Positions 19,287 through 41,143 of a stretch of DNA of 64,000 bases are shown here, piece after piece; positions within the stretch are counted from its first letter, which is position 1; each line of letters opens with the position of its first letter. The position numbers were made by a program, and so were the translations under genes. The notes under the pieces are model-generated. The model saw nothing but the letters and a program-made list of their open reading frames with translations. It searched no databases and was not told where the DNA came from. The stretch comes from Schmidtea polychroa. Its lineage: Eukaryota. The stretch is from positions 68,386,001 to 68,450,000 of the forward strand of contig CM097888.1 in the NCBI GenBank assembly GCA_044892525.1, written 5' to 3'.

Positions 19287-22200
19287 CGAGAAAGGGGCCA
19301 ACAACAACGACCACCACAGCGAAATAATAATTATATAGCGAATCCGCAACGACAAAGTAACCCTAACGAAGGAAAACAAATGAACGTTATGCAGGAAATT
19401 TCGCAGATGAAACAGATGATGCAACAAATGATGAGACCAAGACAAGAATCAGCACCACAACAAACCCAGAATATACGTATGATGAGGAGTACCGAAAATC
19501 TCAACAATTATGAAGTGCATCAACATGTACAAGAATGGCAAAGGCTACAGGCCGAGGAAGAGAGGATAAAACAAGAACGCAACCAACAACGACAAGAACA
19601 ACCATTGCGAATAAATATGATGAAGTTAGTAAAAGACATGAAGAGCCAGTATTGCTACAATTACGGGAAAAGCCCAAGGGTAGTACCCATGACTGAACCA
19701 GAAAAGGTAAAAGAAATAACAACGGAAATGAAAACAGAGAATTCAACCACGATTTTAAAAGGAAACCAGAGAATTCAGAAAATATTCTGGAAAAAGATAA
19801 AAGATAAAATCGAAAAAGAACATAATAAAGCGAAAGCCGAGACAGAAGATGAAAATAACAAGAGCAAGGAACAAACCAGTCAACTAAACCACCAAATGCT
19901 ACAGGAATTAGAATCAGAAGAAACAACGATATTCGAAAGAAAGAAACTAAAGAGAGTACCAAGGATGAGAAACTTGCAAATCAATATGATGAAAAGGACA
20001 AAAGATGTAGCATCGTCAGACGAGGAAGAAGACTATGTAAGTAGTTTGGGTGGAGAAATACTACAGCTGAATGAAATAAGCGAACCTCCAAAAGGGGAAA
20101 TCAAAGAGGAAGAAGGCGAAAGCGAGATAACCAGCGAAAGTGAAGACGAGGATATCGAAATAAAGTTGAGAAAAGGGAAGGAGGAAGCGATAAAACAAGT
20201 AGCGGAAATACTCCCAGTAGTAGTGAGGAACCAAGAGTTCATTGACGTAATACCATTCAGGCGATTCGTGCAAAAAGTGATGAAATTGGAAAGAAACGAG
20301 AAAGATTTAATACCAAACGAGGAAAAATCAATTATAAAAAATTATATGGAAAAAATGAAGCAGGCCGATACCACGCGGTATGTAATAAAAATCGGAACGA
20401 GTAGAGGACTTGAAAGAATGTGGATAAAAAATACAGTCACCGACGAACTTTTCGATTGGATACGAGAGCATTTGGGAAGTTCGAGAAAGAAAGAATATCT
20501 GTATCAATACCAAGGAGAACAGATCAAACCAGATATGCACTTAGTAGATGCACTAATATGGCCAGGAGAAACGCAAATACTGAAGTTGCATAAAGAAAAA
20601 CAACCAGCCAACCTTTACGATTGGGCTAAAGATGCCAAGGCAGAATATGATTTTAATATCAAATTGAAATTAGAACAAATAAAACAATGTACTCTGAGAC
20701 GAAACCTGGATAAGCTGATCAAACAAATTCAAGAACAAGTAGAAGACAACTGGGATTTACTCATCACCAGACGAGCCCCAGCCATGTACGAACTAATGAG
20801 CCGGTTGCGAGATACAGAAATGCTCCGAATGAGTGATTGGAGAACCATAAATTTGATCCACAAATATGGAAGGTTAAAAGAAACCCAGCCACAGAGGTTG
20901 GAAATAACCATATGGTTACCGAACGAAGAAAAACGACGAATAAAAATGAGCAATCAGAGTACAGTAGATGACTTGGTATCAAAAATAAACCAAGAGATAA
21001 CGGAAAAGGTACGTAGCGAAAGTAGTGATGGTATGGTGGATGATGTAGTCATGATGTACGATAAGATAATATTACGAGCGGAGGACGACACCTCGTTAAG
21101 CGAAATGGGTATGTGGGACAATCACCAGATAATCAGGATAGTACCAATGGATGAATTTCGAACAAGAGATGTAACCTATCAAAAAGAAATACGAGACCGG
21201 ATGAAAACGTTATATCAAAAATCTACGGAAATAATTAAAATCCACCAACAATGGTTAAAAGAAAAAGAACTACAAGGAAAAATCACGAAATTAAGCACCA
21301 GATCCTGCAGACGAACCCCATGGGAAAGAGTGTGGAATGCAGAAAGTAAGGAATGGGAAATCCGGAAAGGAACCTTCGTGGAAACAGACATTGGTGAGAC
21401 AGAAAGTGAATCGGAGGAAGAAGAAGAGGAACCTCCAAAATATGAAGAGGAAGCAAGGGAACAGACATCAGATGACGAAGGCGAGACGGATGTCACATCA
21501 GAAAGCGAAAATGAAGCGAGACATATTCATGCAATGAGGAAAAAGGAACGTGAATATGCTGATATGGACGGCGAGGAAGCGACGGAAGCAAGAGAACGAG
21601 AAGAGAAAGAAAGATATAAACAATTAGGCGATATCTTAGCAATGGGAGCGAAAAATCAAAGACGCCAAGTAGTAGCGTTGGCTAACATCATCTTAAAGAC
21701 ATCAGAGGACATCCACAATCTGAGAGGAATGGCAAAGGCAATAGAGGAATACCGGCAATATAATGAATGGTATCCAGAACAGCTAGAACAAATTATTCGA
21801 AAATGGAGAAATCAGGAATGGGCACAAGACACCCAGGAGAGGTATCACATCCGAATCAAGTATCCAGACAAGAGCATCGAGGAACTAGAGGTGCATCCAA
21901 CAACAAAAATTAGAGAATTAAAAAAGAAATTAGCATATGAAACTCCATTCCATCTGCAACTGTTCGGAAAATCACTAGACGATAATGCAGACGTCGGGAT
22001 AACCCCCATGAGATTGGAAGAGACAAATGTATTAACAATGGCAGAAACGTTGGGAAAACCGTTAAAAAGGAAAAGTAAAATTATTAAACCAACACAAGGC
22101 AGTTTGAGTACTCCAAGTCCGAACAAAGCACCAAGTAAATCTAATGAAACTGAAGAAGTTGAAGAGATAATCCTGGAAGATAGTGACGATGAACCAGGAG

Positions 22201-25200: not shown

Positions 25201-28200
25201 TGAAAAAGAATAAGCCAAAATTCTTGGACCGATTTAGAAGCCAATCATCTAACAGCGATAGTGACGACGATGATAACGGGAACGATAAATGTCTTTATCC
25301 AAACAGAAACCCAAACGAAAAACCAATGGAAACGGCACCATATTGGGAAAAGGAAAAGACAAACACCTGGATCGCCAATGGAAGCTATATACCACCGGAT
25401 ATCGTGGGACCACAAACAGCTTTGACCATGACACAAAATATGTATCCGCAATTACCGAGTCAACCCGGTATGCATTATATGCCAACACGACGTACCAAAA
25501 GTGTAGATCAAGCAGAGGACGTAAGAACAATAGCAGCGATGAGTTTACCTGGAGGTCCAGCAGTAACAGTTATGATTCAAATCAATGGTAAAGAAACCAA
25601 TGCTATGATAGACACCGGAGCTAATGTATCAGCGATAGCGATTAATCAAATCCCCAGTAAACACTGGAAGGATATCGAATCAACAACAATTCACATCATA
25701 GCATGTAGTAAAGAAACAGTGGACGTGGTCGGAAGATGGTGGACTACATTGAGATACCAGGACAACGAAATTGAAACGTATTTGGCAGTAATACCAAAAC
25801 TTAGCGTACCATGCATAATCGGAACGGATTTGATGCCAGAATTGTTAAAAGAAATCGTAATTGACTTAACAACCATGTGTTTAAAAGACAAAACCGGTAG
25901 AATATGCAAAATGAATGCAGTCATCAGATGTCCAGAAAAAATAATAGTACCAGCAAAATCACAGATGATTTGTCAGATAAAAGTGGATACGGGTATGGAA
26001 GGAGAAGTTATCTTTGAACCAAGCAAGTCATTTGAAAAGCGACGAGAATTACCACTCGCAAGAGAAATAATCACAATAAACCAAGAAGGAGTGATACCGC
26101 TCAACATCACGAATTTCGAAGAGGAAGACAAAATCATTTATGAGAACGAAAAATTGGGAAGATTGACCCCAATGATGGACATAGAATTACCGAAAGTGAC
26201 CAACGAGATGATCAAAGATGATGAATTATGGACAATAGATAGTATGTTGTTGACGAATGACGAAAAGAAAAAATTGCACCGATTGTTGGTAGAATATAAA
26301 GATATATTCGCCATCTCAGATTTAGACTTGGGTACATGTGATGTTACCTTACATGCAATACCACTCATAGACGAAACCCCAATTGCATTGAGACCATACA
26401 AGCTAGCAGAAATGCAGAAAGAAATAGCCGAAACAGAAGTACAAAAGATGCTAGACGCAAAAGTAATCGAACCAAGTTGCTCACCCTGGCAATTCCCAGT
26501 GGTCATGGTAAAAAAGAAAGATGGCACCCAACGATTCTGTATCGATTATCGGAAGTTAAACGCAGTGACCAAGAGAGATACCTACCCATTGCCGGACATC
26601 AATGAGATGTTATTGATGTTGCAAGGGGCAGCATATTTTACTTCTTTAGATCTAAAAAGTGGATACTGGCAGATTAAAGTCAAAGATGAGGACAAAGAGA
26701 AAACAGCTTTTACGTTGGGACGAGATCTATATCAATTCAGGAAAATGCCATTTGGACTGACTAACGCACCAGCATCATTTCAACGGTGTATGAACTTTGT
26801 CACCCATGGAATCAAACAATGTATGGTATATATTGATGATTTACTAATCTATTCAGCGACATTTGAACAACATCTAGAAGATATCCGAAACGTATTTATT
26901 AGATTAAGACAGTGGAAACTCAAACTCAAACCATCAAAATGCGATTGGGCAAAGGAAAAAGTCACGTTTTTAGGACACATAGTGTCAGCTAAAGGAAAGG
27001 AGCCAGATCCAAGAAACATTGAGAAAATAAAAACATGTCCAGCACCGAAAACTGTCACCCAAGTTCAGGAATTTCTAGGATTATGCGGATACTATCGCAA
27101 ATTTATCAAAAATTATGCAGGAATTGCAAAACCAATCCAGGAATTAGTAAAGAAGGACATTTCGTTCTTATGGGGGAAGGAACAACAAGAGGCGTTTGAA
27201 ACGCTGAGAGACAAACTAATCGAAGCACCTATCCTCGTACACCCAGATTTTAAGAAGCCATTTCTATTGGCAACGGATGCAAGCGGGTACGCGGCAGGCG
27301 CGATTCTGGGACAATTGGACGATGAGGGAAAAGAGAGAGTAATCGGGTATTACAGTCGAACATTCAAAAAGCACGAAAAGAACTATTCGGTAACAGAACG
27401 AGAAGCATTGGCTATAATACAAGCTATCAAACACTTCCGATATTTACTATGGGGACATGAGATATGCATAACCACAGACCATCAACCATTAGTGTGGTTA
27501 GGGCAACATAAAGAAGCGTCCAGTAGACTGATGAGATGGGCCATGCAATTGCAAGAATACTCCCCATTTATAAAATTTAAAGCGGGAAGAGCAAATGCCA
27601 ACGCCGATTGTATGTCAAGATTTATTTTCCCAGATTTGGTGGATTCAGAAATGCAACGCATATGCTTAATAGTAGCGGAAGATTTGGATTTCTGTCAATT
27701 GCGAAAGGACCAACAAGAGGACGCGGAATTAAAACAAATTATCGATTATATAAAAACCGGACAGACAGATGTATATGCGAAAGACCAAAAATTAAAAGAA
27801 CATATGGATAAACACCGACACCGATATATTATAGAGAAAGATTGGTTGCTGATAATGGATGGGGAAAAACGATTAATGTGTATACCGGAAAACCGACGAA
27901 AAGAGTTACTAACGCAATATCACGATGGGAGATTGGGAGGACATATGTCATCAAAAAAGACGTTAGCAAGAATGAAACAGAAATATTTTTGGCCTACGTT
28001 AACGGAAGATGTAACCGAATGGGTAAAAAATTGTCTAACTTGTGCAACCAGGAAGAATACGGGATCGAAATGGAAAGCACCTTTAACGCCAATGCCAGTA
28101 CCAATAGAACCAATGACAATGATATCCATGGACGTAGTTGGTCCACTACCAGAGTCAGATAAAGGAAACGTTTACATTCTGGTGATCACAGACTTTCTTA

Positions 28201-31200
28201 CGAAATTCCCAGAAGCATTCGCGATGCCAGACCAAAAAGCTAAAACAATCGCAAAAATTTTGGTAGAAGAGATATGTTGCCGATATGGAACACCAAAACA
28301 AATCTTAACCGATCAGGGAACAAATTTTATGAGTGAGATAATGAGCGAAGTAACAAATTACTTCAAAATAGCAAAACTAAGAACATCTCCATACCACCCT
28401 CAAACCAATGGGATGACGGAAAGATTTAATGGAACACTTATACAAATGTTATCAAACTACGTTGACCGTCACCAACGAGATTGGGACGAATATATAAACC
28501 TATGTCTTATGGCGTACAGAATGTCGATTCACGCATCAACGAAAATGAGCCCATTCAAATTAATGTACGGAAGAGAATGTAATATGCCAATGGACCTGGA
28601 ATACCAACCACCGATATCGCAGTATATGGAGATCGATGATTATGTTACGAAATTCAAGGAAAGAATGCAAGAAATTTGGGAAACTGCGGGATTAAATATC
28701 AAGTTCTACCAGGAAAGTTATAAAGATTTACACGATCGAAAGAAAAACGTGAAGCAACATACGTTCCAAACAGGTGATTGGGTAATGATAGAAACCCCGG
28801 AATTAATTCCAGGAACCACAAAAAAGTTACAACGCAACGGAAAAGGACCATATGAGATCTTATTCGTAGGCGAAACTAATGTAAGAGTGAAATTGGTAAA
28901 TAACCCCTTTACCAGACCAATATACGTAAACGTGGCACGATGCAAATCAATTCCAAAAACAGCCACTAGTCAACCAGAAGGCCGTACATTAACCACACGT
29001 TCGCAAACCTACCGAATGAACATGATGCAACAACTCGCAGAACCGATCACTGGACGATTAGGTATCCAACCTTCAGAAGCGGAAAAGATTGTAAAAGAGG
29101 TAAAAATTAAAATACCTGGATGGGCAAAAGATCGATTAGATTTCGAAATATTAGGAGGATTATTGACGATGATCGAGAACTATGCAAATAGAGAAAGGAC
29201 ACACCCATTATTGCGAGTAGTCAAAAGCCAATGGCCAATATTATTTACAATAACAGATCATTACGGAGACACACCATTACACAAACTCATGAAAGTAGGT
29301 AACAACGAGCAAATACTAGAAACAATAGAAGCATTTCACGACTGCAAGCGATCAACAGAACAAACAAACAACCAAGGTTACACACCATTAATGATAGCCG
29401 CAAACAGAGGCAAAACAAAAGACATTATAACCGCATTACTCGATACCGGATCGAAAATAACTACACAAGACCACGAGCGGAAAAACGCTCTACATCATGC
29501 TATCAGAGGGAGAAGTACCGAGGCGTTCACGTCATTGATGGAACTACTATCATATGAGGACAATCGGGAAGTCGGAAACATGTATGATGGATTGCTAACA
29601 GCGATCAAAGAAAAACTGACGACAATTACCGGAATATTAATTACATGGAGAAATCCGATTCGAAACGATTATATGATCAACGTAAACGAAGCGTTCACGA
29701 GAGGAGAGAACACGCTGATGAGAGAAGCTATGAAAGGACATCATTTATTCGAAATCCCGAATCAATTACTAGAACGAGGGATAAAATTCACAAATCACAA
29801 AGACGAACAGTTAACAAAAAAGCGAATCGACACATTCGAAAAATCACTATTCCAATTTACTAACCAAGTACGACATAAATATTGGGAAACAGTAAGTGTG
29901 TCATATATGATGGACACGATGAATAACATCCGCGAGAATTACATGGATATTATCCAAATACTTACAGCAGAGGAACGAATCAATAATCCAAACGGAAAGA
30001 AAACGAAAATAAGGTATGAGAAATCCAGGGAATCAAAGTCAACAACGAACCAAACGGTCACAAACAACGTCATCGAAACCAAATCAATGAGTATAGATCA
30101 AGAGGCAATAATACGCAAAGCAAAAGAAGTGTTCTTTGAGGAAATGCTAGAGCTGCCAGACGAAATAATATTGTCCAAAATAATAAAAGCCGTACACACA
30201 TACGCAAGAGATCAAACCACGGGTTTAGATATCGGGAAAATCAAAACCTTCTTGCCTCGAGCATTTACGATGGTAACGAAGGATTCCCGAACACCCCTAC
30301 AACAAGCAATACTAGCTGCAAAAGAGAATAGAGCAATAACGATCATGAGAATCCTTGGGGAGATGGGCGAGGAAACCAACACGAAAAATGAACAAGGTGA
30401 AACCGCCATGATGTATGCAGCTATAACGAAAATACACCCAAAAACACTCCACATCCTACATCAATCAGGATCGAAACTAGACGAAAGGTCCAATGAAGGA
30501 AATTCCACCTTGGACTGGGCAACCATACAGCCAAACTTAGAAATGATCAGATTTATTTGCAAAAATGCGACAGAAGAAGAAGTTGAAAATATGTGCAAAA
30601 ACACATCTCAGTTTCAATGGAATACGGTACGGAAAAATCTAGAAGCAATGAAATTATTATTAACCTGGAGAGTACCACCAAATAATAAATATGCGATAAA
30701 TGTAAACGAATTCTACGAAAACGGAGAAAATGCGATGGTAAAGAATACCCTAACTAAGGGGGGGACGCCTAAAATTATTTTAATAGTATTAAATAGAGAA
30801 GACCTAAAATTCACGCAAAATCAGAACGAGCAACAACGAATTGGGAAACATCGTCGTATGCAATTGAGAGAGTTAGTTAAAGAATGGAATAGAAAGAGAC
30901 ATGCTGCAACGGGTAGAAAAGAGTTTGAATTCGAAGCAAAATTAGCAAGAAACAGAGTGCTAACAGCATATCGCAGATTATTGAACGATATAAATGTCGA
31001 GGACGACATTTTAAATGACAGCGAGGGAGATAAACACGATGACAATAACGGAAAAGACCGAAAGGAGGATAAAGAGAAAAGAGAACCGGAGGAGGGTAAA
31101 CCAGAAAACAAGGATTCGGATACGAAAAGAGAGGGAAACAGCCCGAGAACCAAGACCAAAGAGGAGGAAAAATCGAATAATGGAAAACAGAGGGTATGCC

Positions 31201-32234
31201 TACCTTTCACTAACAAAGAAATAGAGACAAATATGATATTAATGATAATTATGCTTACCATGATAGAGTTAGTAACAGCTCAGGGAGGGACGAGAACGAT
31301 AAAAGAAACCAAAGAAGCGGAGAATCAAGATAGCAAAGAGGATGAACTAAAACAAGAAAAGAGAAAGCAAGCACAAGAGCAGCAGTGGGATTTAAAGGAA
31401 GAATGGGACTTAAAGGAAAAGTGCATACTAGGAAGATGCATGTCTAGAGCGTATCAGAAATTAGTACTGATAAATGAGGACACAGAACCAATAACAGAAG
31501 TAAGAATACAAGAAGCATACCGAAATCGAGACGGGAAGAGAATAACGAACGTCAAAGGAAAAGAGGTACACCTAGGAAAAGGTGGTGAAGTAGTAATAAC
31601 GCAGATCCAACCTAGAAAAGAGCACAAAGTCTGTATTTCAAGATTAGGACCAGGTGAGAGATGCCATCAATATGTGACGCAGCAGCAGCCGCCGAAAGAA
31701 TACACGGTTTGTATCTGGAGGAATGAATCAAAAAGAGAATGCCGACGATACCCGGGGAAAAGAGGAAAGAAAAGAAAAAACCACGACGAAAAGAACGAAG
31801 GAGGAAAGCACAAGAAAACTGGTGAGGAAGCTCAGGACAACTATGTTTCGGAGGAAGAGATGGAAAAAATACAAAAGATGGCAAAGGAGGGTATGAACGA
31901 GGAAATAGCAAGAATACGGGAAATGATGAAAGGAAATGGCAAAAGAGGAAACGAGAAAAGTACAGAAGCGATATCAACATTAACAAACAAGGAAAAACCA
32001 GAGAGTATAAGCGTGAAGCAGATGATGTGGATCAGTGGGATAATAATAACAGGGGCATTCCTAATCATAACGGGGGGAACAATAAAAATAATTAAAGATA
32101 AACGACATCGCGGAGAACTAGAGATGACTCGAATCAGAAATTTCCAACATCGAGTGAAACGACCAAGTGATATCAAACAAGAACAGTGGGTGGAGGCCTG
32201 GAACGCTCAGCGCCCTCCAAACTCACGTATATAG
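18381..32234 (+). CDS. 4,617-aa single-frame polyprotein: Gag-ZnK3-Ubl3-Bcl2-like-Env-PR-RT-RH-IN-ANK-membrane protein
   Basis: Uninterrupted ORF with all catalytic motifs intact: DTG (25611), YIDD (26829), RNase H TDAS, and integrase zinc-binding plus DVVGP/DQG/ERFN. Confidence 0.97.
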   Translation: MTNVVKTDEYKEKFRGEPFNGNANKLASFITNFEVYITVCGWTPEAISKRMPLFLCDSALEVYLEAKERDTKLEKWEDIKTFLKKTFGASKPINQALGELANRKQRANESITLYASELRRLAKKAMNGKLPEENLIGYFIEGLRREEVRASVGCQMCKTLEEAIDWATRCELHLPAQMNIMQEEGRIATAIAKADNGDNNNQEPKMNQFIPGAHQIFKPPQGRSNGNNGNRNNPNNENNFNNRRNMNDNKQCRTCGKPGHWDRDCYRNSNCNRCGRRGHTENVCQLRGCFNCGQPGHISRDCRERGQQQRPPQRNNNYIANPQRQSNPNEGKQMNVMQEISQMKQMMQQMMRPRQESAPQQTQNIRMMRSTENLNNYEVHQHVQEWQRLQAEEERIKQERNQQRQEQPLRINMMKLVKDMKSQYCYNYGKSPRVVPMTEPEKVKEITTEMKTENSTTILKGNQRIQKIFWKKIKDKIEKEHNKAKAETEDENNKSKEQTSQLNHQMLQELESEETTIFERKKLKRVPRMRNLQINMMKRTKDVASSDEEEDYVSSLGGEILQLNEISEPPKGEIKEEEGESEITSESEDEDIEIKLRKGKEEAIKQVAEILPVVVRNQEFIDVIPFRRFVQKVMKLERNEKDLIPNEEKSIIKNYMEKMKQADTTRYVIKIGTSRGLERMWIKNTVTDELFDWIREHLGSSRKKEYLYQYQGEQIKPDMHLVDALIWPGETQILKLHKEKQPANLYDWAKDAKAEYDFNIKLKLEQIKQCTLRRNLDKLIKQIQEQVEDNWDLLITRRAPAMYELMSRLRDTEMLRMSDWRTINLIHKYGRLKETQPQRLEITIWLPNEEKRRIKMSNQSTVDDLVSKINQEITEKVRSESSDGMVDDVVMMYDKIILRAEDDTSLSEMGMWDNHQIIRIVPMDEFRTRDVTYQKEIRDRMKTLYQKSTEIIKIHQQWLKEKELQGKITKLSTRSCRRTPWERVWNAESKEWEIRKGTFVETDIGETESESEEEEEEPPKYEEEAREQTSDDEGETDVTSESENEARHIHAMRKKEREYADMDGEEATEAREREEKERYKQLGDILAMGAKNQRRQVVALANIILKTSEDIHNLRGMAKAIEEYRQYNEWYPEQLEQIIRKWRNQEWAQDTQERYHIRIKYPDKSIEELEVHPTTKIRELKKKLAYETPFHLQLFGKSLDDNADVGITPMRLEETNVLTMAETLGKPLKRKSKIIKPTQGSLSTPSPNKAPSKSNETEEVEEIILEDSDDEPGERSPLLVRWPTGAEMWTNNQPSTSYQQPTKLNIEEIIDNTTETETDEQFQKQREPTKVTPESQTDKIIDEWNEWLRNNDSSLPRTDNERNPNYENTREAGTMMEKRAKGRPKKQGEKSEFKTKEQLKQEQGQVRLEKLDKIVWDLKEAQPTIERGEKWIRELLKDMLIITNPQLRRLWQRKVASTEARQLWHTISGIIPKLIKEKTKTTKTDWDETKRVIEQLTTNANDDEHHLVVITYLMYNLMGLAARKIPNKQFANHVEMTVSIIENTIEPHIIRAGGWKRLIQAPRKNEQERSMQVRLKKLLNELEWELPMKDPASRKASINSLMMTMMIWMLCTSGATGFTIYDCDNMIMRDKYSLRDIEECRQASPNKLDIVRTKVTYHVYQESDFIRTQARECVVSKKVLAYYCGQYSYSTLILPGLDKEIVSIQREDCKELFRTGALKMHNGVTIHGQTGMIKTESVYVSGKVKSSDGSCNGGTYTIRGEVISGVVVIESYTVELKEYEAQFDANNYQMKTNPTCRATENVCRTGVSTIIYEANTQKCRLQLLKSALFNEVKGEIYENENDEDGNDRVRMRNGKPMPPSPREKRLSTQKTPTALITDDPDLGMRFIKEKETTKCDSIVYKTNYAGIYMSRQIIDRAVGKIATEDVKLYLYANNKMDFLFHRGQTTLQKVYYDLIQNDCSLNKEILKTKLAIAITHPDNTMPSLPFPDGHFGRMVGEVMYTYQCTKTYARMPEKSILPEKRCANELEIRYKGQNRFVQPVTRIMNPVGFYPNLFNCSNAYGPLYERPDGKWMMLPGKTISEEPKKFGLIELATELDFKPIDVSNGGMYSPEDLETARLNVLFPARRESILSNMVTITGGTNYQSGPNYELLLSPDHFQQATSNMMKAMWGRFLVFGKMMAGILGIILIIQIVRVILTQMLACFDIYKREKKVNWKMIVGFLPFLAKTMVLHGHSKDIHRIKRLIKILTKIKGTDEEVGRRFRKVMYDEATRRQLKKNKPKFLDRFRSQSSNSDSDDDDNGNDKCLYPNRNPNEKPMETAPYWEKEKTNTWIANGSYIPPDIVGPQTALTMTQNMYPQLPSQPGMHYMPTRRTKSVDQAEDVRTIAAMSLPGGPAVTVMIQINGKETNAMIDTGANVSAIAINQIPSKHWKDIESTTIHIIACSKETVDVVGRWWTTLRYQDNEIETYLAVIPKLSVPCIIGTDLMPELLKEIVIDLTTMCLKDKTGRICKMNAVIRCPEKIIVPAKSQMICQIKVDTGMEGEVIFEPSKSFEKRRELPLAREIITINQEGVIPLNITNFEEEDKIIYENEKLGRLTPMMDIELPKVTNEMIKDDELWTIDSMLLTNDEKKKLHRLLVEYKDIFAISDLDLGTCDVTLHAIPLIDETPIALRPYKLAEMQKEIAETEVQKMLDAKVIEPSCSPWQFPVVMVKKKDGTQRFCIDYRKLNAVTKRDTYPLPDINEMLLMLQGAAYFTSLDLKSGYWQIKVKDEDKEKTAFTLGRDLYQFRKMPFGLTNAPASFQRCMNFVTHGIKQCMVYIDDLLIYSATFEQHLEDIRNVFIRLRQWKLKLKPSKCDWAKEKVTFLGHIVSAKGKEPDPRNIEKIKTCPAPKTVTQVQEFLGLCGYYRKFIKNYAGIAKPIQELVKKDISFLWGKEQQEAFETLRDKLIEAPILVHPDFKKPFLLATDASGYAAGAILGQLDDEGKERVIGYYSRTFKKHEKNYSVTEREALAIIQAIKHFRYLLWGHEICITTDHQPLVWLGQHKEASSRLMRWAMQLQEYSPFIKFKAGRANANADCMSRFIFPDLVDSEMQRICLIVAEDLDFCQLRKDQQEDAELKQIIDYIKTGQTDVYAKDQKLKEHMDKHRHRYIIEKDWLLIMDGEKRLMCIPENRRKELLTQYHDGRLGGHMSSKKTLARMKQKYFWPTLTEDVTEWVKNCLTCATRKNTGSKWKAPLTPMPVPIEPMTMISMDVVGPLPESDKGNVYILVITDFLTKFPEAFAMPDQKAKTIAKILVEEICCRYGTPKQILTDQGTNFMSEIMSEVTNYFKIAKLRTSPYHPQTNGMTERFNGTLIQMLSNYVDRHQRDWDEYINLCLMAYRMSIHASTKMSPFKLMYGRECNMPMDLEYQPPISQYMEIDDYVTKFKERMQEIWETAGLNIKFYQESYKDLHDRKKNVKQHTFQTGDWVMIETPELIPGTTKKLQRNGKGPYEILFVGETNVRVKLVNNPFTRPIYVNVARCKSIPKTATSQPEGRTLTTRSQTYRMNMMQQLAEPITGRLGIQPSEAEKIVKEVKIKIPGWAKDRLDFEILGGLLTMIENYANRERTHPLLRVVKSQWPILFTITDHYGDTPLHKLMKVGNNEQILETIEAFHDCKRSTEQTNNQGYTPLMIAANRGKTKDIITALLDTGSKITTQDHERKNALHHAIRGRSTEAFTSLMELLSYEDNREVGNMYDGLLTAIKEKLTTITGILITWRNPIRNDYMINVNEAFTRGENTLMREAMKGHHLFEIPNQLLERGIKFTNHKDEQLTKKRIDTFEKSLFQFTNQVRHKYWETVSVSYMMDTMNNIRENYMDIIQILTAEERINNPNGKKTKIRYEKSRESKSTTNQTVTNNVIETKSMSIDQEAIIRKAKEVFFEEMLELPDEIILSKIIKAVHTYARDQTTGLDIGKIKTFLPRAFTMVTKDSRTPLQQAILAAKENRAITIMRILGEMGEETNTKNEQGETAMMYAAITKIHPKTLHILHQSGSKLDERSNEGNSTLDWATIQPNLEMIRFICKNATEEEVENMCKNTSQFQWNTVRKNLEAMKLLLTWRVPPNNKYAINVNEFYENGENAMVKNTLTKGGTPKIILIVLNREDLKFTQNQNEQQRIGKHRRMQLRELVKEWNRKRHAATGRKEFEFEAKLARNRVLTAYRRLLNDINVEDDILNDSEGDKHDDNNGKDRKEDKEKREPEEGKPENKDSDTKREGNSPRTKTKEEEKSNNGKQRVCLPFTNKEIETNMILMIIMLTMIELVTAQGGTRTIKETKEAENQDSKEDELKQEKRKQAQEQQWDLKEEWDLKEKCILGRCMSRAYQKLVLINEDTEPITEVRIQEAYRNRDGKRITNVKGKEVHLGKGGEVVITQIQPRKEHKVCISRLGPGERCHQYVTQQQPPKEYTVCIWRNESKRECRRYPGKRGKKRKNHDEKNEGGKHKKTGEEAQDNYVSEEEMEKIQKMAKEGMNEEIARIREMMKGNGKRGNEKSTEAISTLTNKEKPESISVKQMMWISGIIITGAFLIITGGTIKIIKDKRHRGELEMTRIRNFQHRVKRPSDIKQEQWVEAWNAQRPPNSRI
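23181..25080 (+). other. Envelope glycoprotein (chuvirus/Monjiviricetes-like class III fusogen) embedded in the polyprotein
   Basis: Hydrophobic signal LMMTMMIWMLCTSGATG, then FTIYDC...YSLRDIEEC...YQESD...ECVV...YCGQYS. Cysteine-rich ~560-aa ectodomain, furin-type REKR (23964-23975), TM MMAGILGIILIIQIVRVIL from 24912. Confidence 0.72.
25560..28960 (+). other. Pol: aspartic protease, reverse transcriptase, RNase H, integrase (Ty3/Gypsy)
   Basis: AMIDTGA; SPWQFPVVMVKKKDGTQRFCIDYRKLN; LDLKSGYWQI; MPFGLTNAPASFQR; YIDD; LATDASG; TDHQPL; H-x6-H...CLTC; DVVGP; TDQGTNF; ERFN; GKGPYEI (GPY/F). Confidence 0.97.
29256..30760 (+). other. Two ankyrin-repeat blocks fused downstream of integrase
   Basis: GDTPLHKL, GYTPLMIAA, KNALHHAI; then RTPLQQAI, GETAMMYAA, GNSTLDWA. 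Both blocks end in a related motif (LITWRNP..Y.INVNE...GEN vs LLTWRVP..YAINVNE...GEN). Confidence 0.85.
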
Positions 32235-32394: not shown

Positions 32395-32754
32395 ATGGAT
32401 CAAGGAAATAACGAAATGAACCACAATACAGTAACTGAAGAATTATGGAAGCAACAATGTGCCGTATTAGCACAATTAGTGTCCAATTTGCAAGAACAAG
32501 GACTGACGATGCACAGAAACCTGATCGAGAGTATGAACAGAGGATTTAGTTATTTGAAGATAATTGAAGACCAGAGGTTAAAAATCGAACAAATGCAAAG
32601 AGAGATAGAGAGGATAACCCAATATAGCCGTCGACAGGAAATTGAAATAGACCGAATGAGGGAGGAAGCAGAACAGACAGAAATAGAAGACTGGTCGGAA
32701 TGGCTAATGAATAGAGAGGAGAGCGGGCACGAAGCCGACTCTTCCGAACCCTAA
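32395..32754 (+). CDS. Small coiled-coil accessory protein (~119 aa)
   Basis: First ATG at 32395 within the listed ORF; heptad-rich E/Q/R sequence with the same codon style as the rest of the element. Confidence 0.6.
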   Translation: MDQGNNEMNHNTVTEELWKQQCAVLAQLVSNLQEQGLTMHRNLIESMNRGFSYLKIIEDQRLKIEQMQREIERITQYSRRQEIEIDRMREEAEQTEIEDWSEWLMNREESGHEADSSEP

Positions 32755-32839
32755 ACCAAACCTAGCTTAAAATGTAAATAATTGTAAATAAAATATCGAA
32801 CCTGTATCGATAAGAACTATTTGTACATATAATTATAGA

Positions 32840-34228
32840 ATGGATAAACGACAAAGAGAAGAGTTCAGAGAGATTGTCGAGCAAGTCCGAAAATCTACAA
32901 CGATCAGAATACACAAACATGTTATGTGCGGAATATGTGAAAAGTTGTTAAAGGAACCTCACCAAACGCAATGTGGATGCAGAGTATGTAAAGAATGTAT
33001 CAGTGAAGCAATAAAGAATAGACCACAGAGGTGCCCGGTGTGTAAAGAGACACTAATATCGAGTTTAGAAGACACTAACGAGGATAAAGCCGCAGTGAAA
33101 GACATGTTAAACACCAACCTGGGATGCAAAAATGCCCCATGCGAATGGAAAGGAGTAATATGGAAGGTAGTACAACATATGGGAGAATGTATGTACAGAA
33201 TTGGCCAGTGTGAAAGGTGCCATAAAACCATTCGAGCAAGCGAAGAAAAAGAGCATCAAAGGCAGTGTGAAGAGAGATTGGAAAGATGTGAACACTGTGG
33301 AGAAATAGATACGTGGATAAATCTCACCCTCAAACATCACAATGTCCAAGAGGAGAGAGTATGTGCAGAGTTCAGTGGGGAATGCCCAAACGGATGTAAC
33401 CAAGGGGAAATAATGAAGGTGGCACAGCATCTAAGGGAATGCGCAAAGAAAAGAATGACATGTGTACTAGGTAGATGGGGTTGTCAGAAACTACTACACC
33501 GAGGTGAGTTACCACATCATTTAGTAGAAAATGCTTCAACTCACGCAGAAATGTGGTCGACTGCGCTACAAGAAAGCGAAGAGAAAGTAAAACAAATGGA
33601 GATAGAGATAACATCGTTGAAAGTGTTAGTCAAAGAACTACTAGAAGAAAGGGAAGCGTTCGAAGAAGCCCGAGCAAACATAAAGATGCAAATAAACCGA
33701 ACAGAAATCAGTAATAATCAGGCCAAGGAGCTACATCAGAAAATACGGGAAATAAATCTAAATGAGATAACCCCAACAGCACCCTACATATGGAAAATAA
33801 CGGGAGTAAAAGAAAGAATACGAAAAGCAAAAACCGGAGAAGAGACAAGAATAACAAGTCCTACATTCCATTCTTGGAAAAATGGGTACAAAATGAAAAT
33901 GAAGGTATATCCCAACGGGGACGGAACCGGATTGGATACGCACTTTTCGATTTTCTTTCTGTTATGTAAAGGAGAATACGACGAAATATTAGAATGGCCG
34001 TTCCAGGCAAAAATCGATATTACTCTGATGAACAACCAAAGTATACATGAGCAAAGCTTCAAAACAACGGGGAATCAAATAGCTTACCAGAGGCCCCTCA
34101 ACGAAGAAGGATCAGCAACAGGAGCACCTACGTTCATCTCACAACAAAGAGTAGAAGATATGGCGAGAAATGATACCATATATATCAAGATGACCGTGAG
34201 GAAAGAGGAGAAGGGTAGAACGGAGTAA
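32840..34228 (+). CDS. Full-length intronless TRAF-family protein (RING, TRAF zinc fingers, coiled coil, MATH), TRAF2/3/5-like
   Basis: RING CGIC..LLKEPHQTQCGCRVCKEC..CPVC; zinc fingers CKNAPCEWKG...H..EC, CEHC, CPNGC; MATH YIWKI...SPTF...GYKMKMKVYPNGDGTGLDTHFSIFF..KGEYDEILEWPF...NDTIYIK. Confidence 0.95.
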   Translation: MDKRQREEFREIVEQVRKSTTIRIHKHVMCGICEKLLKEPHQTQCGCRVCKECISEAIKNRPQRCPVCKETLISSLEDTNEDKAAVKDMLNTNLGCKNAPCEWKGVIWKVVQHMGECMYRIGQCERCHKTIRASEEKEHQRQCEERLERCEHCGEIDTWINLTLKHHNVQEERVCAEFSGECPNGCNQGEIMKVAQHLRECAKKRMTCVLGRWGCQKLLHRGELPHHLVENASTHAEMWSTALQESEEKVKQMEIEITSLKVLVKELLEEREAFEEARANIKMQINRTEISNNQAKELHQKIREINLNEITPTAPYIWKITGVKERIRKAKTGEETRITSPTFHSWKNGYKMKMKVYPNGDGTGLDTHFSIFFLLCKGEYDEILEWPFQAKIDITLMNNQSIHEQSFKTTGNQIAYQRPLNEEGSATGAPTFISQQRVEDMARNDTIYIKMTVRKEEKGRTE

Positions 34229-34366: not shown

Positions 34367-35476
34367 ATGAATAAATTCCTTTTCATAATAAAAAGATTAA
34401 TCGATGTCTATGATTTAGAGATGACACAAGAGAAAATAACCGAAACTGCGATAGCCCCAACCAATGTCAACAAGACACAAATTCCCCGAGAACATAATAA
34501 AAAATGGAACAAAGTAATGTTCCAACTAACTAATCTCACCCGAAATCACATCGAAGAAACTAGAGAAGATGAGAATAGTCAATACCAATGGTTAATACAC
34601 AACTTAAGAGCGGAAGCAGAAGCATGCAAAAGAGCATCAAAATGGGCGTCACTAGAAAATACCCGCCAAGAAGCACACAGCCACTACTTAAAGCAGCTAG
34701 TGCAGGAAGCGAGAAAAAGACTTACCGATGAGAACACCAAGCGCGAAGCGGAAAAACAAATAGAAGACAGGAAAATGATGCACTTAGTGGCAGAAGCGAG
34801 AAAATGGAAAAGACAAAACAGAGAAATGAAAAAAGAGATGAAAGAATTGCCCATGAGACTCGGATATGAAAGCGAACAAGGTAAATGGGAGGAGAATTTA
34901 ATAATAAAGGAAGAATTGAAAAGGTTGAGAAAGGTCGCCGCCCGAAGCCAAACCTGGCAAACAAAGGCTATGGAGTTTGAGCGACATTTGGCAATGAAGT
35001 GCGACATAAGAGAGCACGAGAATGCCGCAATGGAAGAGATGATAACCCAACAAGCGGGACGGGTTGTGGAATTAGTAAATCAGGTAGAAGAGATGAAAAG
35101 AGACCTTAATGGATTACAAGGATCGCTGGAACAAAGAAACATGGTCCTAGCGGGAAAAAACAGAAAATTAGAAAACGAAAGGAAAATGTACACCGAAAAT
35201 ATTAAAAACTTAGAAATAGAAATTGAAAAATGGAAGGGCGACGAGAAAATCAAGGCCCTAGACAAACAGATAGAGGCGAAAGACGAAGAGACAAGGTATC
35301 TCACCTATCTGCTCGACGAGGAATTGAACATCACTCGAGCTCTAAGAGACGAAATTAATGAATTGAGAGCTCAAATCCCCCAATATTACCTACCATACGA
35401 CCCTATTGCGATACAGTTACATCCCGCGGTCGATAGTGATGAAGGTTATGTAGGCCAGGAGGAAACCTTCGTATAA
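34367..35476 (+). CDS. 369-aa coiled-coil accessory protein
   Basis: Long intact ORF with extensive heptad E/K/R/L content and no recognised family; an alternative start lies at 34421. Confidence 0.75.
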   Translation: MNKFLFIIKRLIDVYDLEMTQEKITETAIAPTNVNKTQIPREHNKKWNKVMFQLTNLTRNHIEETREDENSQYQWLIHNLRAEAEACKRASKWASLENTRQEAHSHYLKQLVQEARKRLTDENTKREAEKQIEDRKMMHLVAEARKWKRQNREMKKEMKELPMRLGYESEQGKWEENLIIKEELKRLRKVAARSQTWQTKAMEFERHLAMKCDIREHENAAMEEMITQQAGRVVELVNQVEEMKRDLNGLQGSLEQRNMVLAGKNRKLENERKMYTENIKNLEIEIEKWKGDEKIKALDKQIEAKDEETRYLTYLLDEELNITRALRDEINELRAQIPQYYLPYDPIAIQLHPAVDSDEGYVGQEETFV

Positions 35477-35613: not shown

Positions 35614-36366
35614 ATGTATACGTATAAGTCGCACTATAGCGCACCATTAACTGTACATATTATAGATATGAAAATCGAGGAAATGATAGAAATTATGAGC
35701 GACGTAGAAGAGGGAGAGATTGAGGCAGAAACAACAGAAACACAAACGCTAAAGGCCGAGTTACGGGAAGAGAAATACGAAAACGGGAGATTAATAAACA
35801 AATACCTAGAGGACCGGAAAATGATAAAGGTGTTAAAGAAAGAGTGCGAAGCGTTGGGGGAAATAAAAAGAGAAACGGAAGAGGAAAATGAATGGCTACA
35901 CGAACAAAGGAAGCGAGGGAAAAACTGGGAAAAGATAGCGGAAGAACTATGGAAAGAGAGGGCAAGCTTCAAAGCAAAGGAGGTAATCCAAGACTACTGG
36001 AAAACTGAAGCGAAGGAGCGCCAAACAGCTATAAATAAATTAAAACGACAACTAGAAGAAAACCAACGGGAAAGTAAAGAAATGAGGAAGTGGGTCCGCA
36101 AATATAGAGAAATAGAAAGAAAACATCAACAACAAAATTACCTGCAAGAAAACGAACAAGATCTCCTACAAATCGAGCTAAAAAGAAACCTTGAAAAGAA
36201 AAGGGAAGAAATTAGACGCTTGGAAAAAGAAATTAGACATCTAAAGAGAGAAGCCCGTGAAAAAGACCGACAATTGGAAATGCTGCCCGAGTTAAGACAC
36301 AGGGTAATTAAAGCAGAGTCCACCTTGATGAGAATCGGCGAAAATAATCCAAATCAGAACCATTAA
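35614..36366 (+). CDS. ~232-250-aa coiled-coil accessory protein
   Basis: Intact ORF rich in E/K/R heptads. The likely start is ATG 35668, whose context (tgtacatattatagatATG) resembles that of the TRAF start (tgtacatataattatagaATG). Confidence 0.75.
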   Translation: MYTYKSHYSAPLTVHIIDMKIEEMIEIMSDVEEGEIEAETTETQTLKAELREEKYENGRLINKYLEDRKMIKVLKKECEALGEIKRETEEENEWLHEQRKRGKNWEKIAEELWKERASFKAKEVIQDYWKTEAKERQTAINKLKRQLEENQRESKEMRKWVRKYREIERKHQQQNYLQENEQDLLQIELKRNLEKKREEIRRLEKEIRHLKREAREKDRQLEMLPELRHRVIKAESTLMRIGENNPNQNH

Positions 36367-36406
36367 ATTAAGGGTCATTAAAACCAATTGTAAATAAACA
36401 TAATGA

Positions 36407-37075
36407 ATGTATAATAGTATCATGCGAGGCGAGATGATGATAACAATGATGGTATTGATGATTCTGATGGAGAGCAAACAAATAGACGCCCAACCGAAAA
36501 TCGTACGAGATTACCGAAATCAAAATCAAGAACCTAAACAAGAATCCAGTCAATGCACATACCCGATGACCGTAAAAACCCATATCATCCAAACCATTCA
36601 ATCAACCCGATCACACATCAACAACATCCAAACAATGTGTAAAAAGAATCCCATTTGTAAAATGATAAACAAACAAATCCTCGAACAAATTCAACAATTC
36701 GACCAGTTGGAACAACAAATGCAACAAGAGAATTTTGGAAATCTGGTAGAAAAGCCAAAAATACCTCCCGAAATCAATAACGCCCATTATCTCATATATG
36801 TGGTGATCGCAGAAACCCTCCTCCTATGTCTACCAATATTCATGAAAATTTACGAAGTTCGAAATAGATGTAGAATCTCGACATCAATAAGAGTAACCTC
36901 GAACCAAAATCCTCAAGAAGTGCCCCTGACAAATCTTAACCCAACCCCATTCCGACCTCGAACCCCGAGTAATCAACCAATCCAGCCGAAATCTAATAGT
37001 CAGACCTATCTCAACATCAATACCCAAACCAACCAACAGCCGCCAGCAGAAGCATCAATGGTTAACAATTCATAA
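36407..37075 (+). CDS. Small type I membrane protein (signal peptide, Q-rich ectodomain, TM, P/N/Q-rich tail)
   Basis: MMITMMVLMILMESKQIDA signal-like segment; YLIYVVIAETLLLCLPIFM TM-like segment. Confidence 0.7.
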   Translation: MYNSIMRGEMMITMMVLMILMESKQIDAQPKIVRDYRNQNQEPKQESSQCTYPMTVKTHIIQTIQSTRSHINNIQTMCKKNPICKMINKQILEQIQQFDQLEQQMQQENFGNLVEKPKIPPEINNAHYLIYVVIAETLLLCLPIFMKIYEVRNRCRISTSIRVTSNQNPQEVPLTNLNPTPFRPRTPSNQPIQPKSNSQTYLNINTQTNQQPPAEASMVNNS

Positions 37076-37301: not shown

Positions 37302-40300
37302 TGTTGGGCTGAGTCGAAAATTTAATCGTTGAAAAATAAGAAAGTAGGGAAGTAGAACATTAAGAAAAATAAAAATAAAATAAATAAAATCAGAAATAAA
37401 ATAGAATAAGATATAAGGAAAATAATAATTAAGACATAAGAATTAAAACAAAAAAATAAAATTAAGAAAAGATTAAAATAGAACAAGTTGACAAATAAAT
37501 AAAGAGGAATTCAAGAAATAATAAGGAAATTAAGGAAATAAATAGAAAAACATATTAAAAATAAAGAAAATAAGGAAAAAACAACCTAAAAACAAGAAAA
37601 TTATATTAAATTAATAGAAATAAGCGGTACTCAACTCTGATTGGTCCGCACAAATAAGAATTTGATATATATACAACTACCAAAAACATTAAATTTACTG
37701 TTAACCCCGAGCATTTCATAGGTAAGAAAGAATGTTTACTGTTTTGACTGTTAACCCCGAGCATTTCATAGGATCGACACTACTAGCCAAGCAACCGTCA
37801 TTCAGAAAACTCCACAACTATTCAAAACCAGTTCAGAGACCGAAATACCATTCATCACAATAATCGACATCCAACGGACCACCATTAGAACTATTTGGAA
37901 CGAACAACATTGAATTTTGACTCAGCCTAACAATAGTAAGGGGTATTTCATTTGTTTATAGATTTATTTAAGTATTTGCAAAGCTAATAATAATGTTAAA
38001 TATTAACGATTAAACATTTTAGTTAACTCTCTTCATTTGATTCTCCATTTTAATAACTTTAACGTATTGATGGAATTTGTATTATTTAAGTATTTCAGAA
38101 TCAATAAAATATTTTTATCCAGATGTCCGTATTTTATTTGAATTAAAGATTTTATGAATTTTCATTTAACGAGTAACGTGGAGTTGAGATACTCCATGTC
38201 ATGGTATGAGGTGCCTTCGGGAGCTCAGCCGGTGGACATGGAGTATTTCAATCGCGCAGCTAGATTGGGCCGAAATGTGAAGGCTTCTTCACGGGTCCTA
38301 TCGCTGAAGATGCGACTAAATTATCACAATGGGGTATGGATAAAAAATAACCGGTAGACAATGATTTCACAAAGATAGTCATACGAATGAAGGGATTTTC
38401 AAGGATTTGCACAGTGATTGAGGGCGTCGCATTCTTCTTTCGTCAAGTCGTTTTCGTAAGTCTTACCCCTATTGAAAAAAGAGATCCAGACCACGATTTA
38501 GTGAACTTCGTCAAAAATAACAACATCTCATAGTACGCTTCATCTGGAAACATGGTTTTATCAAATTAATTGCGACAACGTCTATTTGCCGGACTCAGTA
38601 GAACTAAATTCGTATGAAATTCCATTATCATAGACCCAATGTCATCTAACCTGTCCAGATTGTATGTCAGGTTACGAAAGTATTCTAAAAACTTTAACTA
38701 ACTCGAAACTATAAAATGCGAGATTCTACGAAAACCTCTCTAGTATTATAATCAGAAAGTTTTTATAGACTTAGTTATTTCAAAAATTATAACCAGGTAA
38801 AATATCACCAAATTTAATTAATAACATTTATTTCTACAATAAGAGCCAGGTCATCACTGTATATATCCAAATTATTGAACCTGAGAGAAAAGGACAGGTT
38901 TCATCGAGACGGCATTACATCTGAATAGGAAAATCCGAGTAGAATGACGAGAGTAGTAATATGCTTCAGTATTTGGTAGAATTATTCCCTCGACGATCAC
39001 TGAAAAGATCCAATAAATTTCCAAACGATGGTGATCATTCACACAAGTTGATAAGGGTAAAATTCCGCGATGAGAACTGGCGGTAGCATAAATCATAACT
39101 CAAATAAATCACTGTGCAGAGAAAATCATACGACAGCAGGATCGATAAAATCACCGTGAAAATGGCATACACCAAGTGAGTGAGATAAGATAGTAGCCAT
39201 ACACGAATCCATGTGGTGAGAGCACAGAATATCAGACTAGCATACATAGTAGTCGCGACACGTGACATTCACAATAGGTCGATAATGTAATCAACCAGTC
39301 GACAGCAGTATCCGTAAATTTGGATATGTTATGACCGATGGGATTTTCCATGAGGGTGTTAAAGTAATGGCTGATGTAAACTCATCACATATTTTCAGAC
39401 CAATGGTAGACAACATTGATAATCACATTCACTACCGAATTAAAAGTGCACTTCCAATAACAAATTTCGAATCAAAAATATGTTGAGAGCGATAGTAATT
39501 TGTTTTTAATAAATTAAAATAGATAACATATAGCAAGGTTTGGTCGCATACTATAATGTCCCTCTACTAAAGCATTATTATATTATTTCACCAATATTAT
39601 ATTTACACCCTATCAATTATTACGTCCCTCATGCATACAGTTAGATCAATAGATAGTCAAAGTTAATAACATGCGTCAAGCCGATGGCATTTGGTTAAAT
39701 AAACCGTTTTAACAACTAAGATCCGTAGTAAAACCGGATTGTAGAATAAGTTTTCCTTCTTTTCGACGGTCAAGTATCCACGAATGGACGCGGGTCGTAT
39801 CTAATTTATTCTAAAATCGTATGTTCTCCATTTCATTAGTATTATTTATAGCAAGCATGCTACCAACCACTAAATCAGCATTACGGCCGTGCTTCTCGTG
39901 CGCGGATAAAAATACGGTGATAAAGGACCTACAAACTCAGATTGGACGTTACAAGAGGAAGATAGACGAGCTGGAAGGGACATGGTTTAGTCCCGCTCGG
40001 ATGAAAGAGATCCAAAAGAAGCTCGATCGTAGCGAGCATTGCCGGGACGCGCTAATATCTGAGAGCCGTGCCCAAAGAAGTCTAATCAGAGAACAATCCG
40101 AGGCACTGCATAAGGTTTACGTGCAGGCGGCTACAACCCGAAAAATCGTGCAGATTCCCATCCGAGAGGCCGATGACATCTTTCCGCCTCATCACAACCT
40201 TTCCTCGAATCCATCTCCACCGTTCAAGAGACCGTGCCGAGACTGCGTCGAAACCGAATGGTCCCCCAAGCGTCCAGATGTTGTCATCACGGGTACCAGT

Positions 40301-41143
40301 AAGCCCCCCACTGCTAGTCCATCTGTATCAGTCACCCTTCTGCAAGTGGCATCTTCAAGCAAACCCAAGCGCAAACAACTCTCTCGTGCAGAGCGCAAGA
40401 AGAGACAGCGCGAGCGCGCTACTGCAAAGCCAAACATCCCATCAATAGAGGACTCAACCAACGGTGGCAACTCTCACGTGTCCATCGACCTAACAACGGG
40501 ACCCTCAGCGCGAATCATATCAGCCGCTGGCGTAAGGTGGGAAGAGAACGCTTCCGAGTTTTTCAACCTCGACGAATTATTCGCCGACACTGAATGGGAG
40601 AAACAATAAAACCCCAGTGGCGGTCAGGATGAGGAACAAGGATCCGATCTATGTTGATTATGATGTTTTCTCTTCTTTCGACAAACATTAGTAAAATGTA
40701 CAGCTGAATCCTTGTGTCATAACGTTGAAATTAATAAATCTTGTTGTCTTACACGTTTTCGTTCATGAATAATTAGACTTTAATTAAGTGGGTTGAGTAG
40801 AGAACCCGCAAGATCTAGTGAGAATTTCCCAATTTGCATTCAGCGAATCCTGATAGGTGGTTGTGTAAGGAAATGGACGTAAGCCCTTCTATCGGCAGTC
40901 GTGAATGGGAAGTCGAGGCCTCAGCAAGGAGTAGTTTTAAGGCAGAAGCTCACCTGCTTGCTGGCGTCTCGCCTGCATAGTGCAGTACCAACGTGAAGTG
41001 ATTCACGGGCACTATGTTGGAAGAAAGTTATGTGGGGTTTCACTCCAGGTTGACAAATCGGTGGCACCTTTTATTCGAGATGGACAATCAACCCTTAGAC
41101 CCGCCAACATGGTAGAATGGTCAGCCGAGGTGTAACCCCAACA
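37302..41143 (+). repeat. 3' LTR (3,842 bp)
   Basis: Direct repeat of 11271-15112, followed by TSD CTAA. Confidence 0.97.
39821..40609 (+). CDS. 3' LTR copy of the 262-aa LTR-encoded protein
   Basis: Translation identical to 13790-14578. Confidence 0.65.
   Translation: MFSISLVLFIASMLPTTKSALRPCFSCADKNTVIKDLQTQIGRYKRKIDELEGTWFSPARMKEIQKKLDRSEHCRDALISESRAQRSLIREQSEALHKVYVQAATTRKIVQIPIREADDIFPPHHNLSSNPSPPFKRPCRDCVETEWSPKRPDVVITGTSKPPTASPSVSVTLLQVASSSKPKRKQLSRAERKKRQRERATAKPNIPSIEDSTNGGNSHVSIDLTTGPSARIISAAGVRWEENASEFFNLDELFADTEWEKQ

Follow-up and report, generated by a model that had tools for sequence, protein, structure and literature searches.

A complete, selectively maintained TRAF gene aboard a Burro-type giant Gypsy element of Schmidtea polychroa

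The window analysed here, a stretch of 64,000 nucleotides of Schmidtea polychroa DNA, holds an LTR element of 29,873 nt, and between its two LTRs sits a complete open reading frame for a TRAF protein. The LTRs are 3842 nt each, have TG..CA ends and are bordered by a 4-bp target duplication; since they differ at only 1 of 3842 positions, the insertion is very young. The features of the locus, in window coordinates, are these:

11267-11270 and 41144-41147: target duplication, CTAA
11271..15112, + strand: 5' LTR, 3842 nt
13790-14578 (5' LTR) and 39821-40609 (3' LTR), + strand: LTR-internal ORF, 262 aa
15455..15940, + strand: 161-aa ORF with a cIAP-like C-terminal RING (PF13920) and no BIR
18381..32234, + strand: polyprotein, 4617 aa, identified by its Pfam domains; no MATH
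32395..32754, + strand: 119-aa ORF of no known family, with low pN/pS; a homolog precedes the TRAF in the sister family B too
32836..32838, + strand: YAG, predicted splice acceptor; it closes an AT-rich spacer and directly precedes the TRAF ATG
32840..34228, + strand: TRAF accessory ORF, 462 aa, no internal stop
32927..33043 (aa 30-68), + strand: RING, eight Cys ligands, C47 replacing the usual His
33125..33544 (aa 96-235), + strand: TRAF-type zinc fingers, four C-C-H-C fingers and a probable fifth
33533..33754 (aa 232-305), + strand: coiled coil, a predicted helix that aligns to the TRAF3 coiled coil
33785..34198 (aa 316-453), + strand: MATH / TRAF-C domain (PF22486, PF21355; Foldseek)
34367..35476, + strand: Glu/Lys-rich ORF, 369 aa, with a homolog in family B
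35614..37075, + strand: two accessory ORFs (250 aa; 222 aa with hydrophobic stretches)
37302..41143, + strand: 3' LTR, 3842 nt

The polyprotein runs in the order Gag, CCHC, viral fusion glycoprotein (PF24664), protease, RT, RNase H, integrase and ankyrin repeats. With its length of about 30 kb, long LTRs, target duplication and one giant ORF spanning gag-env-PR-RT-RH-IN plus ankyrin repeats, the element is a Burro-type giant Gypsy, matched to the description given in PMC6431247. It is not Burro1/GYPSM1 proper, an assignment we rejected because the polyprotein MATH and the BIR gene are both absent here and both present in a second family, called family B below. By its RT, which is 87% identical, the window element represents a sister family (family A) of this Burro1-like family B.

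The best PDB matches of the 161-aa ORF are the RINGs of cIAP2 and cIAP1, and a homolog 28% identical to it occurs in family B. The Glu/Lys-rich ORF shows length differences in its first codons in 47 of 70 copies, and the ATG at 34421 is probably where the conserved frame begins. The 262-aa LTR ORF has a hydrophobic N-terminus and no Pfam match. A 74-nt tandem repeat of about seven copies (16518-17071) lies in the leader that separates the polyprotein from the RING ORF. The insertion is flanked by host coding stretches resembling ARMT1 (8381-9160, + strand) and malate dehydrogenase (47117-48208, - strand). Farther downstream lie a 614-aa open frame for a Spin/hAT-like transposase (50243-52087, - strand; PF18658, PF14291) and several long inverted repeats (53695-60219).

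The 462-aa ORF has the whole architecture of TRAF2/3/5/6, with MATH, coiled coil, eight-ligand RING and zinc fingers all present, as had been read from the letters alone. MATH is recognized at a Pfam E-value of 2.9e-27 (PF21355, 2e-27) and the RING as C3HC4-type at 1.3e-4 (22.2 bits, the cut-off being 21). Among PDB sequences, the coiled coil and MATH match TRAF3/2/1 at about 1e-27 and the RING and zinc fingers match TRAF6/TRAF5 at 1e-14. An AlphaFold2 model (mean pLDDT 86.6, pTM 0.40) is elongated, with residues 232-305 forming an unbroken 74-residue helix before MATH, and its top Foldseek matches are TRAF3, TRAF1 and TRAF2 domains (E 1e-17). Zinc fingers were assigned from Cys/His conservation in copies and relatives and from alignment to TRAF5/6. 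The RING motif CGCRVC (C45-G-C47-R-V-C50), with Cys for the usual His as first noted, aligns to CGHRFC of TRAF5/6; the spacing of this RING is also like that of TRAF5/6, and most of the insertion that a fish TRAF2-like sequence has is missing from it.

Codon style in the TRAF is fully the element's own, as the initial annotation had observed: third-position A and T stand at 0.44 and 0.16, compared with 0.45 and 0.18 in the polyprotein, and third-position T is 0.30-0.44 in 12 scored host TRAF frames. Of the MATH groove residues, K/R355, Y357 and D361 are retained. The serine triad in the receptor groove of TRAF2 aligns to Q413-I414-A415, and two of these three positions vary between copies. Because the triad is replaced, the ligands of the window TRAF may differ from mammalian ones and may not be TNFR-type tails.

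A single TRAF in a single young insertion would say little about the family, and the initial annotation had named presence in this copy only, or neutral decay, as grounds for abandoning its reading. A genome search with the window TRAF scored 92 matches, each spanning the full length with 95-100% identity and 91 of them free of stops, and all 70 fetched matches lay inside element DNA. TRAF-anchored sampling is biased towards intact frames; a second sample was therefore anchored on the integrase (150 matches, each at least 96% identical in that integrase stretch), which lessens the bias and does not abolish it. A positional TRAF match accompanied 85 of these 150 copies. Of the other 65 loci, 60 were fetched and 5 left out; the 60 comprised 37 open frames, 12 near-full frames that were broken or cut at the start, 4 partial ones and 7 loci without TRAF. 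TRAF sequence is thus present in 138 of the 145 integrase-anchored copies examined. At the seven TRAF-less loci, element similarity ends upstream of the TRAF slot or is missing from the stretch, and none of the seven shows a clean loss of TRAF with both flanks joined.

The copies also bear the mark of selection. Between the window TRAF and six diverged copies dN/dS is 0.09-0.16 at dS 0.17-1.03 (Fisher p at most 2e-13), and among the 413 of 600 random pairs with pS above 0.1 its median is 0.13 and its maximum 0.22. Variants shared between copies have a pN/pS of 0.18 and singletons 0.38; the greater constraint on shared variants is as expected with selection on replicating lineages, and shared-variant pN/pS in neighbouring ORFs is similar (0.13-0.17). 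The RING is the least variable part of the protein (8 of 43 positions vary across copies, against 54 of 141 in MATH), and C47 is invariant in 106 of 106 open frames. The TRAF is therefore a family-wide cargo under purifying selection, intact in more than 100 copies. A neutral passenger, that is, a host cDNA transduced so lately that decay has not yet begun, would explain why frames are open, and open frames by themselves carry little weight where many copies are so young (LTRs differing at 1 of 3842 positions). That reading does not account for a dN/dS near 0.1 at dS up to 1.0, for a nearest host gene only about 30% identical overall, for the lack of any nucleotide match to 20 host loci or for codon use that is wholly element-like; we regard it as virtually untenable, and neutral carriage is refuted by dN/dS and pN/pS across copies.

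Two further observations concern the history of the copies. In five of them (L079, L081, L095, L109 and L114) the domains stand at very unequal synonymous distances from the window; in L079, pS is 0.07 in the coiled coil and 0.50 in MATH. Judged from such sequence contrasts, recombination between subfamilies within the TRAF gene is indicated. Same-strand TRAF copies 26.2-26.3 kb apart occur at C2:177699304/177725516, C4:46256274/46282455 and C4:69865757/69892041, and are probably tandem elements with one common LTR.

To place this TRAF among other MATH-containing sequences, the genome was searched with a MATH profile, and the best 150 of 1551 candidates were scored and classed by match span and frame length. 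They comprised 80 matches to a second type of dispersed TRAF, 13 to giant polyproteins, 1 to the window's family and 56 non-element matches, of which 10, 1 (of the 13 polyprotein matches) and 24 (of the 56) respectively were viewed in genomic context. The second TRAF type belongs to the Burro1-like family B, where a polyprotein with MATH is followed by the homolog of the 119-aa ORF, a 474-aa TRAF, a BIR-RING gene and the homolog of the 369-aa ORF. This TRAF exists in at least 90 near-identical copies, with dN/dS of 0.11-0.24 in nine of nine pairs. It is 30% identical to the window TRAF, and the other shared accessory ORFs are 28-36% identical. The slot taken by the BIR-RING gene in family B holds no such gene in the window's family, in which nothing matched the family B BIR better than E 0.2. 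In one family B copy (L161:4850-7590) a 392-aa BIR-RING gene lies directly 3' of a full TRAF; in another (L168:237-4433) an internal deletion fuses env and TRAF in one 1399-aa open frame.

We next consider where the element TRAFs came from. The initial annotation saw a retro-captured gene, on the grounds that it was intronless, and treated the Cys-containing RING as unusual. Cargo status, host derivation, family-wide presence and selection all stand; absence of introns as a sign of processing does not, as at seven host loci nine TRAF frames likewise stay open all the way from RING to MATH. The RING motif CGC[R/K] is likewise common to host planarian TRAFs, occurring in all nine of these frames and in three Dendrocoelum TRAFs, so that neither an element-specific Cys RING nor intronlessness as evidence of retro-processing could be upheld. 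Fish and sea-slug TRAF sequences have CGH at this position, and one protein from outside the planarian clade (P0048) has CGCR too. Together, the absence of introns and the Cys RING point to descent from a planarian TRAF lineage rather than to processing or innovation by the element. A recent processed retrocopy was rejected as well: host relatives are single-frame, and none among those examined, that is, 24 of the 56 non-element MATH matches within the best 150 of 1551 candidates, exceeds about 30% identity.

Similarity searches and trees agree with a planarian origin. A word-index protein search with the window TRAF gave no match at E 1e-10; in the full HMMER search that was used instead, the best-scoring named single-stretch relatives were Dendrocoelum and Dugesia TRAFs. 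One host gene in this genome is 71% identical to Dugesia japonica TRAF2-like A. In the full-length tree the TRAFs of families A and B are joined (97/86) within a clade (97/98) that includes the named planarian TRAFs, and they fall outside every host ortholog group; the phylogeny proposed at the outset thus places them among planarian TRAFs without joining them to any host ortholog group. The smaller full-length tree also joins A and B (96/96), in a wider clade (93/94) that has a coral TRAF as well. Both element branches are long and flagged for odd composition, and a MATH-only tree, with 8 rows left out, leaves their placement unresolved. With no close host parent among the genes examined, the capture looks old.

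Whether it happened once is a separate matter. Families A and B could have captured different host TRAFs independently, or one TRAF could have replaced the other at the same slot. AU tests, on a tree of 24 of 39 rows, do not reject topologies that place the window TRAF with a host clade and without family B (p 0.122 and 0.112). The window MATH is closer to host MATHs (38-43% identical) than to the MATH of the family B TRAF (34%), and the polyprotein MATH of family B means that MATH entered or was duplicated in these elements more than once. Against this, the A and B TRAFs share their position and their upstream neighbour, have diverged to the same degree as the neighbouring ORFs and form a starred grouping in both full-length trees. 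From these sequence comparisons we consider a single capture likely, and separate captures or replacement clearly less probable. A planarian-lineage TRAF would then have been taken up once, long ago, and kept by selection as standing cargo.

Given the abundance of element copies, we also asked how they relate to the host's own TRAF repertoire. For S. mediterranea, 99 MATH transcripts have been reported (PMC6109357), and the initial annotation had supposed that part of such an expansion might be element-borne. Element copies do inflate the locus numbers here: 94 of the best 150 of 1551 MATH matches are element-type; these come from only three lineages, and the remaining 56 are non-element, 41 of those listed lying in two regions of contig C2. 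These regions (105-125 Mb and 1-6 Mb in genome G000) hold large host TRAF clusters with no long zinc-finger array, and at four fetched cluster loci RING and MATH are in separate frames. Eleven cluster MATH domains and one further host domain (L139) form a clade (100/99) apart from the element TRAFs, contrary to the supposed element origin of the expansion. Around the TRAFs at 20 of 20 host loci, Burro gag, env, ankyrin and 119-aa-ORF sequence is absent; at one of the 20, an LTR ORF of family A lies about 4 kb away. On these sequences, elements dominate the MATH locus count and diversity sits in host genes, and as far as the tree resolves, element copies did not seed the host clusters. Counts of planarian TRAF/MATH genes therefore mix element copies with host clusters. 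piRNAs are reported to degrade many traf, ankyrin and E3 mRNAs (PMC6824462), the same domain classes as Burro cargo. Direct piRNA cross-targeting between the window TRAF and host TRAFs was rejected, as blastn (word 7, E 1e-3) found no match between the window TRAF and 20 host and 20 family B loci.

How such a gene would be expressed is suggested by its surroundings. The TRAF lies 21 kb from the element's 5' end and behind two stops, and so needs a message of its own. A YAG stands 1-2 nt upstream of its ATG in 106 of 106 open-frame copies; as background, 22 of 182 internal polyprotein ATGs have a YAG within 1-4 nt. The RING ORF and the 119-aa ORF likewise have a YAG before the first ATG. In the three ORFs downstream of the TRAF it precedes a later ATG, chosen by eye, and in family B it precedes the first ATG in five of eight ORFs, the exceptions being the LTR ORF and the last two. 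In both families (L159 and L161 for family B) a T-rich stretch and YAG lie 0-4 nt before accessory-ORF ATGs, in the window at these sites:

15450-15454
32391-32394
32836-32839
34416-34420
35663-35667
36415-36421

This arrangement suggests that the accessory ORFs use a set of spliced subgenomic or trans-spliced messages. For the TRAF itself we hold expression by splicing to the AG before its ATG to be somewhat probable: an LTR leader would be cis-spliced, or a spliced leader trans-spliced, to this acceptor. Donor-like GTAAG motifs are present in the 5' LTR at 14501, 14834 and 14848. Spliced-leader trans-splicing is reported in flatworms. Among the sequencing runs listed as containing the sequence there was none of RNA. 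Runs X1-X4 contain it but are probably DNA, as their contigs have loose ends that resemble tagmentation adapter, and no joint or loose end falls at the predicted acceptors among the matches listed. Four further runs (X5, X7, X8 and X10), whose status as RNA is a guess, cover the TRAF region at 80% likeness, X10 barely, with no acceptor joint among the matches listed.

As to function, knowledge of the TRAF family leads us to propose that the coiled coil and MATH would form a trimer and that the RING would ubiquitinate partner proteins. Such a trimeric adaptor and ubiquitin ligase might bias stress signalling in the host so that a cell with an active element survives. A pro-survival modulator is favoured by analogy, because host TRAFs are needed for survival, with RNAi of Smed-TRAF-1/2 as well as Smed-TRAF-2A/B raising cell death (PMC7586133; PMC8807557), and because the BIR-RING protein of Burro1 is reported to guard stem cells against apoptosis (Lee et al. 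2026, via PMC13465017). We would put this direction of action at an even chance, and the same holds for the explanation as a whole, in which an old capture, retained as selected cargo and expressed by splicing, acts as a trimeric adaptor and E3 that favours host-cell survival. Against it stands the lack of a BIR in the window's family, where a TRAF-cIAP module of the mammalian kind is thus not encodable in cis.

Other functions are open to a protein of this kind. It could co-assemble with host TRAFs or occupy receptors and adaptors, blunting an anti-element response and sending no survival signal itself. Planarian TRAFs have been cited as immune regulators (PMC8807557). The lone MATH in the family B polyprotein would suit such a decoy or damper, as would groove residues that match neither TRAF2 nor the TRAF2-like genes of the host and are not constant from one subfamily to another. 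The usual dominant-negative TRAFs are RING-less; here the RING is kept, with all eight ligands, and is the least variable part of the protein (8/43 against 54/141 in MATH). We consider a decoy rather less probable than a pro-survival modulator.

The TRAF could instead serve the element directly, ubiquitinating or scaffolding Gag, Env and the coiled-coil ORFs for assembly, trafficking and release, with effects on host signalling being incidental. In both families it has stayed next to the same 119-aa ORF across an equally deep divergence, it is retained without a BIR partner, and an envelope protein and a second RING are also encoded in the element. Other Burro cargo (BIR, BCL2-like, MATH) points rather to control of host apoptosis (PMC6431247), and the whole TRAF architecture that is kept would presumably be unneeded in a simple ligase. 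Such housekeeping seems unlikely, more so than a decoy.

An opposite outcome is exemplified by ISKNV, whose TRAF protein ORF111L is pro-apoptotic via TRADD and caspase 8 (PMC3352826). By that precedent, the element TRAF would be a death effector, bringing about caspase-8-type death and particle release, and the presence of env and absence of BIR in the window's family would agree with it. ORF111L, however, is a 296-aa protein of RING and TRAF domain rather than one of full architecture, sister family B pairs its TRAF with an IAP, and an integrated element inherited through host cells would gain little by killing them. We find a death effector very improbable, and favour the four functions in the order pro-survival modulator, decoy, element housekeeping, death effector.

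A bolder proposal brings in the element's second RING protein. Burro elements would harbour a TRAF lineage that is old and specific to them, and this TRAF and the cIAP-like RING (in Burro1 also B-IAP) would together form a ubiquitin-signalling module of the TRAF-IAP kind, mobile and self-contained, produced from spliced subgenomic RNAs and setting the apoptosis threshold of planarian stem cells. The proposal appears to us quite improbable. If true, a module at hundreds of copies per genome would make up a real share of the animal's TRAF activity, and its expression would resemble that of the accessory genes of a complex retrovirus.

Our results extend what is known of Burro elements. Burro1/GYPSM1 and Burro2-4 are giant Gypsy elements of Schmidtea mediterranea (PMC6431247, citing Jurka 2007 and Grohme 2018). 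They share with the window element a length of about 30 kb, multi-kb LTRs, accessory ORFs, a tandem repeat, ankyrin repeats, MATH_TRAF_C cargo and a single very long ORF that has env in frame, with gag before it and pol after it (PMC6431247). Burro1 has its MATH in the polyprotein and a Dugesia tigrina element has one in an upstream accessory ORF (PMC6431247), whereas the window element has none in the polyprotein and a full TRAF downstream of pol. MATH/TRAF-C cargo in Burro is thus already known, in print since Jurka 2007 (cited in PMC6431247), and the window TRAF is a fuller version of it. The text of section 7 of PMC6431247, figure aside, describes no full-length TRAF in Burro. In the literature searched, which does not include Grohme 2018 and Lee 2026, we found no LTR element described as carrying a full-length TRAF under selection, and term searches found no "TRAF" in PMC8532177, PMC11410931, PMC13524379 and bioRxiv 10.64898/2026.01.28.702291.

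Among cellular genes, the closest comparison is with the planarian TRAF2-like genes (Dendrocoelum TRAF-2/4/5, Dugesia TRAF2-like A, Smed-TRAF-2A/B), with the same architecture and CGC[R/K] RING, a single coding frame in this genome and the best scores among named full-length relatives. Their identity to the window TRAF is only 24-30%, and unlike them it stands outside the ortholog groups, uses A-rich codons and has an altered MATH groove. Among viral genes, ORF111L of ISKNV (Megalocytivirus) is similarly a TRAF gene on a viral genome; it belongs to a fish DNA virus, is closest to fish TRAFs and represents an unrelated capture (PMC3352826). Apart from it, we found no virus-encoded TRAF described in the sources consulted, PMC3352826 among them. 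The nearest parallel within Burro itself is B-IAP of Burro1, where an accessory gene of a still multiplying element likewise encodes a regulator of cell death that came from the host (PMC13465017); B-IAP has functional data (Lee et al. 2026, via PMC13465017), whereas the window TRAF is known from sequence. If functional, the TRAF would be the second host-derived cell-fate gene on Burro beside B-IAP, and its retention even in a family without an IAP makes a separate role testable.
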